Counted from the first letter of the stretch, positions 4,962-17,860 are shown. The stretch: 21,412 bases of DNA from a virus (IMGVR_UViG_2740892117_000010:1-21412); one strand, 5' to 3'. Notes: generated by a model not told the origin, from the sequence alone. Numbers and translations: made by a program.

Positions 4962-5189
4962 TTACTGGCAGCGTCTGAATTTATTCCCGTACCCGCCGTT
5001 ATCCTTCGCCAGACCCGCCAGAACTAACTGAGTCAGTATTAACTGGCACCGGGCTTCGCTTACTCCGGTAGTTCTCGTCATCATGCGTGGCGTTACCCAC
5101 TTGTCAGCAGGTAAGAAATGAAGGACTGCGGCGGCGGTTTCTGTCATATCTTGCTGTTTTAGCATGTCTTTTTCCCTTCTGGTTAACAT
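4962..5189 (-). CDS. Small hypothetical protein (75 aa; possible start at 5165), first ORF after the late terminator
   Basis: ORF with GAAGGG upstream of the second ATG; C-terminal half looks like a winged-helix segment; function unknown. Confidence 0.4.
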   Translation of the reverse strand: MLTRREKDMLKQQDMTETAAAVLHFLPADKWVTPRMMTRTTGVSEARCQLILTQLVLAGLAKDNGGYGNKFRRCQ

Positions 5190-5283
5190 GACATACCAAT
5201 AACTCTTGTCTAAAAATCCAGCAAGATAAAAAGTCAGTATTCACGACCACCAGCGTGTTTACTGTACTGCACCAAGTTTACAG

Positions 5284-5311
5284 GTACAAAAAACCCGCTC
5301 AGTGGCGGGTT
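5284..5311 (-). terminator. tR-prime-like intrinsic terminator downstream of the late promoter
   Basis: Minus strand reads AACCCGCCACTGAGCGGGTT followed by TTTTTTGT. Confidence 0.7.
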
Positions 5312-5357
5312 CTTAAATCTTATCAACGGTAGACATACAAAGCCCATCGTTGGGGAA

Positions 5358-11731: not shown

Positions 11732-11932
11732 TTATCCATTAGATTTTTCATAAAGCTCAGGTTTAAATGGCAACCGTCCGCAAGTTCTATATGCAGCTTC
11801 TGCTGCACGTCCTTTTGGAATTAACTGGCCCGGACGGTTTCGCCACTGATAAACGGCTTCAGTTGTTATGCCGAAAAAAGCAGCAACTTTCTCAATACTG
11901 CCGAAGTAGCTTTCGATATCGTCAGTTGTCAT
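11732..11932 (-). CDS. cro: Cro-like HTH repressor
   Basis: 66-aa HTH protein divergently transcribed from cI; FFGITTEAVYQWRNRPGQLIP is HTH-like. Confidence 0.75.
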   Translation of the reverse strand: MTTDDIESYFGSIEKVAAFFGITTEAVYQWRNRPGQLIPKGRAAEAAYRTCGRLPFKPELYEKSNG

Positions 11933-12029
11933 ACGCCCTCCAAACTAAGTTTTATTAGATGCTAATTACAAATCTATCTTTGGTCAATAAAAACTAAGAT
12001 TACTTAGCAATTCAAGAAATGGTGCTCCT
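11933..12029. promoter_or_regulatory. Right operator region (pR / pRM with operator half-sites)
   Basis: Divergent cI-cro intergenic region with AACTAAG motifs at 11944 and 11992 and the inverted pair ACTAAGATTACTTAG. Confidence 0.55.
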
Positions 12030-12656
12030 ATGGAAACGGTTGGTCAGCGTATAAAAGCTCTGAGAAGAGTTACCAGAACGTCCCAGAAAGAATTGGGTAA
12101 ATTTTGTGGAGTAAGCGACGTTGCTGTGGGGTACTGGGAGAAAGACATCAATACCCCTGGTGGGGAGGCACTTTCGAAATTAGCGAAGTTCTTCAATACG
12201 TCAATAGATTACATTCTTTATGGTGCTGAGTTTGAAGGCAAACTCGTCACAAACATGCGCAGAGTTCCTGTAATATCGTGGGTTCAGGCTGGGCAGTTTA
12301 CTGAGTGCAGGGCAGCAGAAGTGTTTAGTGAAGTGGACAAGTGGGTAGATACATCATTAAAGATTGGTGATAACTCATTTGCATTAGAGGTTAAAGGTGA
12401 CTCCATGACTAACCCTAATGGCCTCCCAACAATACCAGAAGGCGCAACAGTGATTGTAGATCCAGATGCAGAACCTCGTCATGGAAAAATAGTCATCGCT
12501 CGACTTGATGGAACAAACGAAGCTACAGTAAAAAAATTAGTCATCGATGGCCCTCAAAAGTTTTTAGTGCCATTAAATCCTCGGTATCCCAACATCCCTA
12601 TCAATGGTAATTGCCTTATCATTGGTGTAGTCAAAGGAGTTCAATACGAACTCTAA
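12030..12656 (+). CDS. cI: CI-type prophage repressor (HTH-XRE N-terminal domain + LexA-like S24 peptidase domain)
   Basis: N-terminal HTH (QKELGKFCGVSDVAVGYWEKD); C-terminal S24 signatures (KGDSM serine motif, catalytic Lys region VKKLV). Confidence 0.9.
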   Translation: METVGQRIKALRRVTRTSQKELGKFCGVSDVAVGYWEKDINTPGGEALSKLAKFFNTSIDYILYGAEFEGKLVTNMRRVPVISWVQAGQFTECRAAEVFSEVDKWVDTSLKIGDNSFALEVKGDSMTNPNGLPTIPEGATVIVDPDAEPRHGKIVIARLDGTNEATVKKLVIDGPQKFLVPLNPRYPNIPINGNCLIIGVVKGVQYEL

Positions 12657-12840
12657 GACCTCTCTTCTCTAACTAAGGCACCGAACTAAGAAAAGTTTGG
12701 TGTTTTCTCTTGCCATAATAACTAAGTTAAGTTAGATTTTATGTCAAAGATAACGAACAGGCAGGACGCCCACGAAGTAGCCGCCGGTGGCGTATGAATG
12801 ACCGGATGATTCGTTAAATACTATGTGTAAGAGAGCGCAA
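12657..12840 (+). promoter_or_regulatory. Left operator / pL-like promoter region
   Basis: TTGCCA (12709-12714) - 17 nt - TAGATT (12732-12737); AACTAAG motifs at 12670, 12683 and 12719, matching those in the cI-cro intergenic region. Confidence 0.5.
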
Positions 12841-13043
12841 ATGAACCGTTATTTCACATGCTCGTTTTGTGGCGCAAACGAGCTGCAGGCAAAAAAATCA
12901 TCGCCAAAGGCGGAAAAGATGAAGTTGCTATCTGCTCTGAGTGCGTAGTCTTGTGTGTCGGAGCATTAATCAATATCAGCACAACTATTCAGTTCACACC
13001 AAATGAGAATGCGCCTTTAGATGCGCGGAAATCTGGAGGTTAA
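12841..13043 (+). CDS. ClpX-type C4 zinc-finger small protein, reading frame broken at an A7 run (12891-12897)
   Basis: Frame 1 from ATG 12841 gives MNRYFTCSFCGANELQAKK; frame 3 continues IIAKGGKDEVAICSECVVLCVGAL. Together they recreate the ClpX N-terminal zinc-binding motif (CSFCG ... ICxECVxLC). One extra A would give a single ~67-aa ORF. Confidence 0.6.
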
Positions 13044-13051
13044 AGAACAAA

Positions 13052-13327
13052 ATGAAAGTCCAGATTTTAAACAATAGTGGTGAAGTCGTTTGGTCATACG
13101 ACATAGCCGCTCCTGTAGATCAGAGCGGCGATAGCTGGACCAATGGGAAACATCAGATTATGGCTGGAGTTGTATTCTCTTTACACCGTGCTTTGGAACA
13201 GGCTGAAGTATTTCCATCAGACCCTGAATGGAAATGGCCTTTTTCTATTTGTCCAAATTCGGAGAGCACATTTCAGAAAATTGGTCAGAAAGTCGCACTC
13301 GAAGAGCATCAGCCAACTGTTTTCTGA
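13052..13327 (+). CDS. Hypothetical protein (91 aa)
   Basis: ATG at 13052 with GGAGG 13 nt upstream; 3' end overlaps a convergent ORF, so the C-terminus is uncertain. Confidence 0.45.
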   Translation: MKVQILNNSGEVVWSYDIAAPVDQSGDSWTNGKHQIMAGVVFSLHRALEQAEVFPSDPEWKWPFSICPNSESTFQKIGQKVALEEHQPTVF

Positions 13328-13490
13328 TTTTTTCAGGTAACTCGTCGGCATCGCAGAAACAACAACGCTCGATCATGTTGAAAGCCGATTCGTAGAACTG
13401 TTTCTGCTGAGTGTCGCTGAGACAGGAAAAGAGCGACGTTACGATGATTTTATTAATTGCATTATCAAGTTCTTTTTCATCAAAAGTCAT
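13245..13490 (-). CDS. Hypothetical protein (81 aa)
   Basis: ATG at 13490 with AAGGA Shine-Dalgarno; helical, charged composition; convergent with the 13052 ORF. Confidence 0.45.
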   Translation of the reverse strand: MTFDEKELDNAINKIIVTSLFSCLSDTQQKQFYESAFNMIERCCFCDADELPEKIRKQLADALRVRLSDQFSEMCSPNLDK

Positions 13491-13743
13491 TTGATTTTCC
13501 TTTTATGTATACGGGCTTAAAAGGATACCACCGAGCCTGAAGTGGTGAAAAGACAGGCACATAACAGCTAAGTATTTTCAACCAGAGAGAATCCTTAGCG
13601 TTGTGGTGAATGCGGCTCAGCGCACGCGGGTTAAGGTTGAGGCTGACAGTCGACCTTCTGTGGATACCCACCCGTCTGGTGTGCAACCTTCGCCAGGCAC
13701 CGGGAGGCACCCGGCACCACAACTTTATGCTGTGTGTAGTCCT

Positions 13744-13790
13744 GGCGGTACCAGTTTGTACCCTTGCTTCCGGCTGGTACCGCTCTTTTT
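13744..13790 (+). terminator. Strong intrinsic terminator (10-bp GC-rich stem + TCTTTTT) in the pL-side operon
   Basis: GGCGGTACCAG ... CTGGTACCGC followed by TCTTTTT. Confidence 0.65.
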
Positions 13791-13927
13791 ACAAAACAGA
13801 GAAGAGCATCACCGGACGACGGGCTCATAACCCAATCCATCCGGGCGGCTGCCACCGCAGGTGTTCTTCTCTGTTTTGTGGAGAAACCAACCGACCTTGC
13901 AGGGTCGATATGATGAGGAGCAGCAAA

Positions 13928-14290
13928 ATGGCTAGCGAACGCAGTACTGATGTGCAGGCATTTATCGGGGAGCTGGACGGCGGCGTATTTGAAACCAAAA
14001 TCGGCGCAGTTCTCAGTGAAGTCGCTTCCGGTGTGATGAACACGAAAACCAAAGGTAAGGTCTCGCTCAACCTGGAAATCGAACCGTTTGATGAGAACCG
14101 TGTGAAAATAAAACATAAACTCTCATATGTTCGCCCGACTAACCGCGGGAAAATTTCCGAAGAAGACACCACCGAAACACCGATGTATGTCAATCGCGGT
14201 GGTCGCCTGACTATTCTGCAGGAAGACCAGGGACAATTACTGACTCTTGCCGGTGAACCTGACGGAAAACTCCGCGCAGCAGGTCATTAA
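13928..14290 (+). CDS. yfdP: YfdP-like protein (120 aa)
   Basis: ATG at 13928 with GAGGAG Shine-Dalgarno; length and position upstream of a YfdQ-like gene match the CPS-53 yfdPQRST module as remembered. The ORF-track N-terminal extension reads as junk. Confidence 0.65.
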   Translation: MASERSTDVQAFIGELDGGVFETKIGAVLSEVASGVMNTKTKGKVSLNLEIEPFDENRVKIKHKLSYVRPTNRGKISEEDTTETPMYVNRGGRLTILQEDQGQLLTLAGEPDGKLRAAGH

Positions 14291-16408: not shown

Positions 16409-16469
16409 TTATCAGGACTGAAATTTGATATTACTGCCCGTGTGCAGCGGGTTAAGTGGAGAAACAGCC

Positions 16470-16679
16470 ATGGCAAAACTAATGAAAGCGAGCCAATGGG
16501 GACGCCGTGAATTCTCTAATGGCTCAATTCCTGACAACCGAACGATAAAACGCTGGGTCGAGAACGGTCTGCTCATGGGGCGTATAGTGGACGGTTCTGT
16601 TTTTGTCTGCGAAACAGAAAAATGGGGAGTCGACTCAATGGTTAGTCAAGCTGTTCGCAAGTTAATAAATGAGGGATGA
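16470..16679 (+). CDS. xis: Excisionase (lambda Xis-like)
   Basis: About 69-aa basic protein with a TIKRWVENG...DGSVFVCE pattern like lambda Xis (RRWVRE...DGREYLF); stop overlaps the int start (ATGA). Confidence 0.7.
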   Translation: MAKLMKASQWGRREFSNGSIPDNRTIKRWVENGLLMGRIVDGSVFVCETEKWGVDSMVSQAVRKLINEG

Positions 16680-17860
16680 CCATGGCGGCAAGGCCACGTA
16701 AAAAAGAATACAGACATCTTCCTGATTATCTGGTTTTTGATAAAGATCGAGGTGTTTATAAATTCACACTTATTACCGGAAAAAAGAAAAATATAGGTAA
16801 GGATCGGGCAATAGCCGTTGCAATCGCCAGAGAGTACAACCTGAGGATGCGATCAGAATTATACCCATCAGTGGATAATCTTATTAGAGAATCTGGCGGG
16901 GTCACCGGAGAAGCAAAACCATTTGCTGAACATGTCGATCACATAATGGCCAGAATTATCGAAGACGAACGACCTTCCCAGAGTACCTTAGATGACTGGA
17001 AAAATGACGCTCTACGCGTAAAAGCATTTTTCGTAAATGTTCCGGCATGCGATATCGAACTTGAACACGTTAATGCCTACATCAACAAATATCATGCCAG
17101 CGCATCCGCAAATGTGCAGAACAGAAAGGTCAGCTTTCTTAAAAAGTTGTTCTCTTATGCGGTCGATGAATCACTAATGCAGGATAACCCGGCCATCAGA
17201 AAAAAAATGCGTAGGACTGATGAGAAGAAAAGACGGCGCCTGTCACTCGAGCATTTTATAGCTATCAGGCAGGCCGCTGCACCATGGTTAAGAACAGCAA
17301 TGGACCTAGCATTGCAGACTACACATGCACGACTCGAAGTATCGCGAATCCGTTACTCAATTCGCGAACCTAAAGACGGTTTATGTGGATGTGTTTGGTT
17401 CGAACAACCACAAAATGGCATATATGGTACACTATACATCCATAGGCAAAAAGTACAAAAAAAGGAGGCATCACATGTTGCAATACCAATTGGTGAAGAA
17501 TTGAAACGGATAATTGACAATAGCCGTGACAATGTGGCCAGTCCCTTTGTCGTTCATAGAATCCCAGAACGGCATGTTAAACGCAGTAAAGAGGTTTCGC
17601 ACCCAACTCAAGTTGCACCAGATTATTTGAGTCGGTCATTCTCTTCCGTGCGAGACAAACTCGGACTATGCAATCATCTAGCAATGGAACAAAGACCTAC
17701 ATTCCATGAAATAAGAGCTTTGGCAGCTCACCTATTTGATAAACAAGGGATTGATCCGCAGGGACGAATGGCACATAGCGATGCGAAATCTACTAAAATT
17801 TATACTAAAAATCATATAGATTGGATTGTTGTCCCTCATGGAGAAATTAAAACCGGTTAG
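16676..17860 (+). CDS. int: Tyrosine integrase, lambda Int family
   Basis: N-terminal arm-binding-like region; C-terminal catalytic region parallels lambda Int (PTFHEIRALAAHLF vs PTFHELRSLSARLY, then H...Y). Confidence 0.9.
   Translation: MTMAARPRKKEYRHLPDYLVFDKDRGVYKFTLITGKKKNIGKDRAIAVAIAREYNLRMRSELYPSVDNLIRESGGVTGEAKPFAEHVDHIMARIIEDERPSQSTLDDWKNDALRVKAFFVNVPACDIELEHVNAYINKYHASASANVQNRKVSFLKKLFSYAVDESLMQDNPAIRKKMRRTDEKKRRRLSLEHFIAIRQAAAPWLRTAMDLALQTTHARLEVSRIRYSIREPKDGLCGCVWFEQPQNGIYGTLYIHRQKVQKKEASHVAIPIGEELKRIIDNSRDNVASPFVVHRIPERHVKRSKEVSHPTQVAPDYLSRSFSSVRDKLGLCNHLAMEQRPTFHEIRALAAHLFDKQGIDPQGRMAHSDAKSTKIYTKNHIDWIVVPHGEIKTG

Follow-up and report, generated by a model that had tools for sequence, protein, structure and literature searches.

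A composite RNA locus in the early-left operon of an SfV/e14-type lambdoid prophage: a likely STnc100/PasD-family small RNA, a terminator and a conserved leader

How does transcription from the early-left promoter (pL) of lambdoid phages without an N gene pass a strong terminator to reach xis and int? This question is raised by the viral sequence IMGVR_UViG_2740892117_000010:1-21412, the 21,412-nt stretch of DNA that is referred to here as the window. Upstream of yfdP, the window holds a gap of 437 bp (13491-13927). An earlier note, made from the sequence alone, described this region as a GC-rich, structured, non-coding stretch with a strong terminator, and proposed that it encodes a small RNA (sRNA) or an antitermination element. 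The reading favoured here, to which we assign a probability of about 0.7, is that of a composite RNA locus in the early-left operon of an N-less SfV/e14-type lambdoid prophage, made up of an sRNA of the STnc100/PasD family, a terminator and a leader module.

A structured, non-coding gap

The gap was confirmed to be non-coding, GC-rich and highly structured, as the earlier note had it. The GC content is 0.55 at 13550-13999, compared with 0.40-0.46 in the flanks. Four mechanical open reading frames (ORFs) overlap the gap, two on the plus strand (13610-14290 and 13603-13830) and two on the minus strand (13480-13722 and 13631-14116). The two plus-strand ORFs were tested and gave no Pfam or PHROG match. 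Indels of 1 nt and 20 nt among homologues break every reading frame, and substitutions in the RNA helices are compensatory. The frame 13610-14290 is free of stops for 318 nt across the structured RNA region and continues in frame with yfdP, which probably explains the spurious ORF calls.

The structured features exceed chance, as is seen from the E-value of the match to the STnc100 family (7e-7), the folding of the leader (z = -6.1 for the segment 13786-13935) and the covarying hairpins; the sRNA segment alone has a z of -2.0. Two hairpins that had been picked out in the earlier note, 13633-13640/13650-13657 and CCGGG-AGGCA-CCCGG (13700-13714), are present in the minimum-energy fold, and three GGCACC repeats are found at 13696, 13706 and 13713. 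The hairpins are kept, with compensatory changes, across many phages and prophages, which is the conservation that the earlier note would have expected.

The STnc100-type small RNA

A covariance-model search, proposed in the earlier note as a check, proved informative. Ranked by E-value, the Rfam scan gave a single strong match in the whole window, STnc100 (RF02076) at 13570-13792 on the plus strand. The match is full-length (model positions 1-206) and scores 44.6 bits, with an E-value of 3.4e-8 for 1 kb and 7.3e-7 for the window. The evidence supports the assignment of 13561-13790 to a known, functionally uncharacterised family of prophage sRNAs, STnc100/PasD, as a divergent, sub-threshold variant. 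The small RNA candidate of the earlier note thus acquires a family, which that note had missed. Its parts are as follows.

~13561-13790, plus strand: small RNA with multiple hairpins (Rfam match and fold)
13567-13599, plus strand: 5' hairpin A, GCUAAG...CUUAGC (inverted repeat and folds; variable between subtypes)
13600-13723, plus strand: STnc100-type core (Rfam match, fold and covariation)
13600-13608/13715-13723, plus strand: closing stem of the core, GUUGUGGUG/CACCACAAC (fold and covariation)
13612-13627, plus strand: hairpin 1 (fold)
13633-13657, plus strand: hairpin 2 (fold)
13660-13671, plus strand: small hairpin between hairpins 2 and 3 (fold)
13674-13698, plus strand: hairpin 3 (fold)
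13700-13714, plus strand: hairpin 4 (fold)
13698-13718, plus strand: invariant 21-mer CACCGGGAGGCACCCGGCACC, with hairpin 4 and the three GGCACC (exact matches in databases)

Both signature motifs of STnc100 are present, GGUGAAU at 13605-13611 and CACCGGGAGGCACCCGGCACCA at 13698-13719. The 21-mer occurs exactly in at least 120 IMG/VR contigs and in at least 120 contigs of species-representative genomes; among the matches listed, nearly all carriers are Enterobacterales, from Escherichia to Pantoea, Erwinia and Rahnella. From these loci, 272 STnc100-like instances were extracted, which reduce to 209 unique cores from phages and Enterobacterales, and the two signature motifs are common to them. 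Hairpin 1 is of the canonical type (GGUGAAU-CCCCC...) in 168 instances and of the window variant (GGUGAAU-GCGGC...) in 39. Members of the variant subtype are found in SfV, e14, ST64B and phiES15, and one is an unannotated element between upl and tciA of P1-like phages. Within this subtype the closing stem is 98% paired, compared with 30-49% in slid controls, and in three of its nine pairs both partners have changed. Scores against the STnc100 model are 33-41 bits for the ST64B, phiES15 and P1/JL22 relatives, and 208 bits for the canonical copy of 933W.

The architecture can be compared point by point with STnc100 (EcOnc27/sRNA103 of E. coli O157). The two RNAs share a core with a five-way junction, a (U)GGUG/CACCA closing stem, a 5' GGUGAAU, a 3' invariant CACCGGGAGGCACCCGGCACC hairpin and an intrinsic terminator; both lie at a prophage site, on the sense strand upstream of accessory genes, and have Hfq-associated relatives. 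They differ in hairpin 1, which is GCG-GCUCAGCGCA-CGC in the window and CCCC-CUGUGCGGA-GGGG in STnc100. The window RNA also has an extra 5' hairpin and no promoter of its own directly upstream, and it lies in the early-left operon, whereas STnc100 lies between Q/stx and the lysis genes. Binding to Hfq is documented for EcOnc27/STnc100 downstream of stx2 and for the related PasD RNAs. In EDL933, transcription of STnc100 copies has been observed, with confirmation by Northern blot for one of them. PasD1 and PasD2 of enteropathogenic E. coli are reported structural homologues of STnc100 (Pearl Mizrahi 2021; Zhu, Shabalina and Storz 2026 preprint). By its published description, PasD is like STnc100 in being prophage-encoded and Hfq-dependent and in having many RIL-seq partners; unlike the early-left window RNA, it lies beside Q and lpxR or esterase genes in late regions.

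A further feature of the core is a possible long-range pairing. The strand right after hairpin 1, AAGGUUG (13633-13639), is complementary to CAACCUU in the loop of hairpin 3 (13684-13690). Across 82 representatives of the STnc100 family with less than 90% identity, pairing with the molecule's own loop has a mean energy of -6.47 kcal/mol, compared with -4.35 +/- 0.16 kcal/mol for swapped partners. Since this pairing competes with hairpin 2, it would form either a pseudoknot or a switch, and a pseudoknot or alternative pairing is predicted to be a feature of the whole family.

Several observations on other family members were made during the survey. The canonical STnc100 copy of 933W (AF125520) sits between stxB and nanS-p; downstream of stxB2, the anti-sRNA AsxR (Rfam, 88 bits) adjoins it on the opposite strand, so that the two are convergent RNA genes meeting at their 3' ends. 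For the window, an AsxR-like sRNA on the opposite strand after the terminator was considered and rejected; Rfam gives no match, and neither hairpin is followed by a U-tract on the minus strand. Arrays of three to four STnc100-like cores within ~1 kb, with no ORFs of at least 50 aa between them, are seen in Citrobacter braakii and on the minus strand of an IMG/VR contig. In C. braakii, tRNA-like sequences with UCU and CAU anticodon loops lie within ~12 nt 3' of two cores, which implies co-transcription and tRNA-type processing. Adjacency to tRNA as a general rule was rejected, as a tRNA lies downstream in only 3 of 235 unique instances.

An unannotated hairpin B (a leader element described below) plus an STnc100-like core was found between upl and tciA of P1 (NC_005856.1, ~70040-70230) and of the P1-like phage JL22. 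This locus belongs to the ban operon, which is under C1 control and also contains tRNA genes and a dicF-like region. The P1 C4 and P4 CI immunity RNAs are like the window RNA in that they are phage RNAs processed from an operon leader, and an immunity RNA of this type was raised as a candidate by the blastn match to P1. It was rejected, because the match lies in the ban operon between upl and tciA and not in immI/c4; the Rfam C4 model has no match even at E <= 10.

The e14 homologue in K-12

The prophage e14 of E. coli K-12 carries a copy of the locus that is ~95-97% identical, with a core that is 97% identical at 1201254-1201388 on the minus strand. The copy lies under the annotated ORF ymfH (NC_000913.3, 1201069-1201380, minus), directly upstream of xisE-intE, and its annotation overlaps the leader hairpin and the terminator as well as the sRNA core. 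Other E. coli genomes label the gap region 'hypothetical protein' or 'frameshifted'. Very probably, ymfH is not a protein-coding gene and is a mis-annotated RNA locus.

RNA 3' ends were taken from published Term-seq data, which comprise three growth-condition sheets (Adams et al. 2021, PMC7815308, Supplementary file 1). The earlier note had named a discrete 3' end near 13790 as the expected product, and such an end is mapped at 1201195 (minus), the last U of the homologous U-tract, which corresponds to 13790 in the window (PMC7815308). Another end, at 1201257 (minus), lies just past the closing stem (CACCACAACUUUA) and corresponds to 13727; it is called in one sheet, apparently the first (LB, OD 0.4) (PMC7815308). 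The strongest end, called in all three conditions, is at 1201423 (minus) within GGCAC|AUAAC and corresponds to 13560 (PMC7815308). No other 3' ends are listed in this data set for 1,200,900-1,201,799 (PMC7815308).

Hfq RIL-seq values come from the re-analysis by Bar et al. 2021 (PMC8175672), in which the cut-off for sRNA candidates is 0.1. In exponential phase, 'ymfH' has an sRNA score of 0.113, above both the cut-off and dicF, with 81 chimeras and 3 partners; in a second sheet the score is 0.094, with 117 chimeras and 4 partners (PMC8175672). The SIC scores of 0.667 (3 partners) and 0.75 (4 partners) (PMC8175672) mean that 'ymfH' is always the second RNA in the chimera, which is how an sRNA behaves. 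The Hfq CLASH supplements contain no ymfH entry.

Formation of the small RNA

Upstream of the sRNA lies a further conserved element.

13527-13561, plus strand: conserved hairpin ACCAC...GUGGU plus GAAAAGACAGGCAC, a 34-nt module junction (blastn and e14 Term-seq)

The 34-nt element is 94% identical by blastn in lambda, P22, HK620, HK140 and Stx1 phages; the lambda copy (NC_001416, 34394-34427) lies between sieB and orf28/ral. Lying at a mosaic module junction, it may be a signal for processing or termination that these phages have in common. The variant subtype carries a conserved upstream hairpin followed by GCACAYAAC, and the candidate processing site of the window, GGCAC|AUAAC at 13560/13561, is the homologue of the strongest e14 3' end. 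RNase E prefers A/G-N|A/U-U. The site GGCAC|AUAAC fits this preference, so the enzyme may be RNase E, judging from the motif. In an unprocessed precursor, CAUAAC can also pair with the 5' strand of the closing stem (GUUGUG), and the core could thus be masked.

The sRNA would most likely be made from upstream transcripts, that is, from pL after induction and from repressor-side read-through in lysogens. Cleavage or trimming at GGCAC|AUAAC (13560/61) would generate its 5' end, and the expected products are a terminated form of ~230 nt and a core-only form of ~167 nt that ends at 13727. By analogy with e14 'ymfH', EcOnc27 and PasD, the sRNA would bind Hfq via its terminator and may act in trans on mRNAs. 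A comparable case is PreS (LPR1) of lambda, an Hfq sRNA made from the pL operon transcript with the intrinsic terminator tL2a as its 3' end, a likeness in which Hfq binding by the window RNA is presumed by analogy. PreS has no sequence or structure similarity to the window RNA, is short and has known targets (dnaN and alaS), and lambda passes tL2a using N.

The intrinsic terminator

The strong terminator described in the earlier note was readily recovered.

13744-13790, plus strand: intrinsic terminator, 13-bp stem of -21.2 kcal/mol plus UCUUUUU ending at 13790 (folds and e14 Term-seq)

It has a perfect 10-bp stem, GCGGUACCAG/CUGGUACCGC (13745-13754/13774-13783), which extends to 13 pairs. The hairpin is stable in every sub-fold, and the 3' half of the core provides no competitor. 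Being strong and persistent, the terminator is expected to end the sRNA and also to block pL transcription towards yfdPQRS-xis-int. It would stop most transcription before these genes, working as a tL-type attenuator or insulator. A yfdP promoter inside hairpin B was considered and rejected, as TTTACA at 13788 lacks a -10 partner at a spacing of 17 bp and the scan gives no plus-strand promoter in the gap.

The leader and its tRNA-fMet-like hairpin

A second conserved structured element, at 13786-13907, follows the terminator and was also missed by the earlier reader.

13786-13907, plus strand: leader, consisting of hairpin B and hairpin C, after the terminator
13786-13884, plus strand: hairpin B, a three-way junction (z = -6.1 and covariation)
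13791-13810/13860-13879, plus strand: basal stem of hairpin B, 20 bp, reaching into the terminator U-tract
13812-13844, plus strand: arm 1 of hairpin B
13820-13833, plus strand: apex of arm 1, CGGGCUCAUAACCC, identical to nt 28-41 of E. coli tRNA-fMet (anticodon stem-loop)
13845-13858, plus strand: arm 2 of hairpin B
13880-13907, plus strand: conserved GGAGAAAC(C/U)AAC, then the small hairpin C (13892-13907, loop UUGCAG-like; fold)

Over 21 distinct homologues, 95% of the cells of hairpin B are paired, compared with 38-51% in slid controls. Ten pairs are changed on both sides, a number matched by none of 500 shuffles. The pattern GGGYTCATAWCCCAATC recovered at least 120 further IMG/VR contigs, with 78 unique variants of hairpin B. 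In the homologue alignment, the GGG/CCC pairs of the arm 1 apex are invariant and its loop is nearly invariant. The sequence CGGGCUCAUAACCC was aligned to metZ and is also present in metW and metV; it occurs once in the window, where zero occurrences are expected. The likeness to E. coli tRNA-fMet covers 14 of 14 nt and takes in the run of three G-C pairs and the CUCAUAA loop, the hallmarks of initiator tRNA. Unlike tRNA-fMet, hairpin B has no acceptor, D arm or T arm, and the tRNA-like hairpin forms part of one arm of its three-way junction, within an mRNA leader; ARAGORN found no tRNA or tmRNA genes in the window.

The leader module is almost always found 3' of a T-tract terminator. The first gene after hairpin B was recorded at 92 loci and is yfdP-like at 65, RdgC-like at 16, YfdR-like at 8 and xis-like at 1. 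At 64 of the 92 loci there is no STnc100 21-mer upstream. Hairpin B thus mostly occurs without STnc100 and in front of varied first genes, so it can be regarded as an independent leader module of early-left operons. GGAGAAAC and hairpin C are kept across variants with different downstream genes, and hairpin C is followed closely by the ribosome-binding site of yfdP. An STnc100-like core directly follows hairpin B in P1-like phages and a few others; this arrangement suggests that GGAGAAAC and hairpin C of the window are related to the first part of a core. Hairpin B has no Rfam match and no description was found by literature search, and this conserved, covarying motif with its tRNA-fMet-like hairpin is the novel, not previously described part of the locus.

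Read-through transcripts would fold at once into hairpin B, which would swallow the U-tract, and then into hairpin C. The leader may act at the RNA level, through processing, 5' stabilisation or the binding and docking of a factor, and the tRNA-fMet-like hairpin is the probable recognition element. Pairing of the sRNA with its own downstream leader was considered and dropped; RNAduplex gave -114 kcal/mol for the full-length pair, compared with -101 +/- 7 kcal/mol for shuffles, of which 4% were at least as good, so that the comparison was uninformative.

The prophage and its early-left operon

The window is a lambdoid E. coli prophage of the SfV/e14/CPS-53 type. Over the 600 bp around the gap, several E. 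coli chromosomes, ST131 among them, match the window at 100% identity and Shigella phage SfV at 99%. The gene layout was taken from the annotation of identical E. coli and SfV records.

11732-11932, minus strand: cro (record annotation)
12030-12656, plus strand: LexA-like cI repressor (record annotation)
12710-12738, plus strand: predicted pL, TTGCCA-17-TAGATT, overlapped by the third operator copy ACTAAGTTAAGTTAG at 12721-12735 (promoter scan)
13245-13490, minus strand: ORF of 81 aa, after small ORFs 3' of cI; its start borders the gap
13491-13927: non-coding gap, 437 bp
13915-13920 and 13928-13930, plus strand: Shine-Dalgarno GAGGAG and ATG of yfdP (GAGGAG-N7-ATG; annotated in identical E. 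coli genomes; yfdP matches PHROG 204)
3' of the gap, plus strand: yfdP, yfdQ, yfdR and yfdS (record annotation)
16425-16679, plus strand: xis
16676-17860, plus strand: int

An operator-like repeat, ACTAAG-N5-CTTAG, occurs in two copies between cro and cI and in a third copy at 12719-12735 (the copies start at 11942, 11991 and 12719). The match at 12710-12738 is the only good plus-strand promoter match downstream of cI in the promoter scan, and from its sequence it is predicted to be the repressor-controlled pL. The gap would then lie ~0.8-1.2 kb inside a repressor-controlled early-left operon, in agreement with the earlier placement on the pL side upstream of yfdP, xis and int. None of the ORFs between pL and the gap is N-like, as had also been noted before.

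Other observations concern the surroundings. Two overlapping plus-strand ORFs just 3' of pL (12823-13043) jointly resemble a ClpX-type C4 zinc finger (CSFCG ... ICSECV); a frameshift at an A7 run near 12889 separates the two, and their Pfam zf-C4_ClpX score of 21.7 bits is under the cut-off of 27. Weak Rfam matches elsewhere in the window were obtained for the Salmonella sRNA families STnc130 (5184-5320, plus, 29.5 bits) and STnc560 (1796-1976, minus, 22.7 bits); with E-values of ~0.5-0.7, both are likely due to chance. In ST64B (NC_004313), a full isrK (RF01394) match of 64 bits lies inside or beside the sb41 regulator gene in the early-right region.

Weighing of the explanations

The composite locus with a trans-acting sRNA is favoured by family resemblance, structures, covariation and operon position, and by the RNA 3' ends and Hfq chimeras of the e14 homologue. 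Several points count against it. The STnc100 score of 44.6 bits is below the Rfam gathering threshold of 47, and no Rfam match at all is obtained at gathering thresholds; since the score is sub-threshold, membership rests on motifs and architecture. A target or phenotype is known for no STnc100 member, published work on EcOnc27/STnc100, PasD and the EDL933 copies has established no function, and so extremely conserved a core is unusual in a base-pairing sRNA. The promoter scan gave no sigma-70 promoter with at least 9 of 12 matches upstream of the sRNA, whereas canonical copies often have TTGACA-17-TAAATT upstream. Processing at 13560/61 would follow by analogy from a 3' end in e14, which is its only basis. 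The e14 end 1201195 was called in only one of the three conditions, apparently the third sheet (M63 glucose) (PMC7815308). The RIL-seq signal belongs to the whole 'ymfH' annotation and not to a mapped sRNA, and the e14 copy may be decaying, as its invariant hairpin and its tRNA-like loop are both mutated. For passage through the terminator to xis and int, neither an N gene, a put-like RNA nor a second promoter was found.

A bolder reading shifts the weight to the leader, and we hold it tentatively, as less likely than not. Hairpin B would be an undescribed, widespread motif that heads N-less lambdoid early-left operons, and its working part would be the exact mimic of the initiator-tRNA anticodon stem-loop. 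As a decoy or a sensor, it could engage tRNA-fMet-recognising factors, for example VapC-type anticodon nucleases, MetRS, or the 30S P site with IF3; or it could be a docking signal for the control of processing or translation of the first gene. Along similar lines, the STnc100 core may be a factor-binding pseudoknotted RNA and not an ordinary base-pairing sRNA.

A cis-acting, riboswitch-like attenuator, in which the pseudoknotted core is an aptamer that gates the terminator at 13744-13790 and the 'sRNA' is a mere terminated leader, is unlikely. The layout of a conserved structured domain, an intrinsic terminator and genes on the same strand would fit a riboswitch, the invariant 21-mer and the pseudoknot recall the conservation of an aptamer, and hairpin 2 and its competing pairing with the hairpin 3 loop provide two mutually exclusive states. 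However, sub-folds of the window sequence contain no antiterminator that pairs the 3' strand of the core with the terminator, and the terminator, as the expression platform, does not share the conservation of the core, that of ST64B being unrelated. Many canonical copies carry a promoter of their own, with TTGACA-17-TAAATT directly upstream of GGUGAAU, or occur in arrays of three to four, or are followed by tRNA genes. The genes downstream of family members are unrelated (nanS-p, tciA, kil and yfdP), and relatives are recovered as Hfq-bound RNAs with partners in trans.

Still less probable is a put-like processive antiterminator RNA, formed by the core or by hairpin B, that replaces the missing N. 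It would suit the absence of an N-like gene after pL, the position of the element early in the pL operon of SfV, ST64B, phiES15 and e14, and the association of hairpin B with the start of the early-left operon rather than with one gene. HK022 putL/putR are likewise structured RNAs early in the pL operon of a lambdoid phage without N-type antitermination. However, put consists of two stems of ~70 nt with another sequence and fold, and neither the core nor hairpin B has sequence or two-stem similarity to putL/putR (NC_002166). Each early operon has one put copy, whereas the window has one STnc100-like match and one hairpin B motif in total and none downstream of pR. put suppresses terminators, whereas the window RNA ends at one; the e14 terminator works in vivo, with a 3' end at its U-tract, canonical copies accumulate as terminated sRNAs, and hairpin B comes after the strong terminator, not before it. 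A lambda-type nut site was rejected as well, since no N-like ORF follows pL and the boxA-like CGCUCUUU, which is the 3' end of the terminator, becomes CGCCCUUU in e14 and CGACCUUU in ST64B. Of the earlier proposal of a tL plus a nut/put-like element, the tL-like terminator is therefore supported and the nut/put part is not.

A protein-coding reading, with either a ymfH-like ORF or a YfdP extended to a start at 13610, can be dismissed as scarcely credible, for although the frame 13610-14290 is open into yfdP and RefSeq lists 'ymfH' in K-12 and a 'frameshifted hypothetical protein' in the identical ST131 locus, it is opposed by the missing Pfam/PHROG match, the 1-nt indels and 20-nt insertion among homologues, the compensatory substitutions and the separate GAGGAG-N7-ATG of yfdP at 13915-13930.

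Significance for the STnc100 family and for lambdoid phages

STnc100 ranks with the most abundant of the annotated sRNA families of bacteria, yet no function is assigned to it in the publications examined here. The early-left subtype has been missed by annotation pipelines because it falls just under the Rfam threshold; of 5,426 complete E. coli genomes, 1,853 carry it, either unannotated or, in the listed examples, as 'hypothetical protein' or ymfH. The leader adds a defined, conserved and covarying RNA motif with an initiator-tRNA anticodon hairpin, for which no function has been described. The e14 copy makes the family testable in K-12, where Term-seq and RIL-seq data exist.

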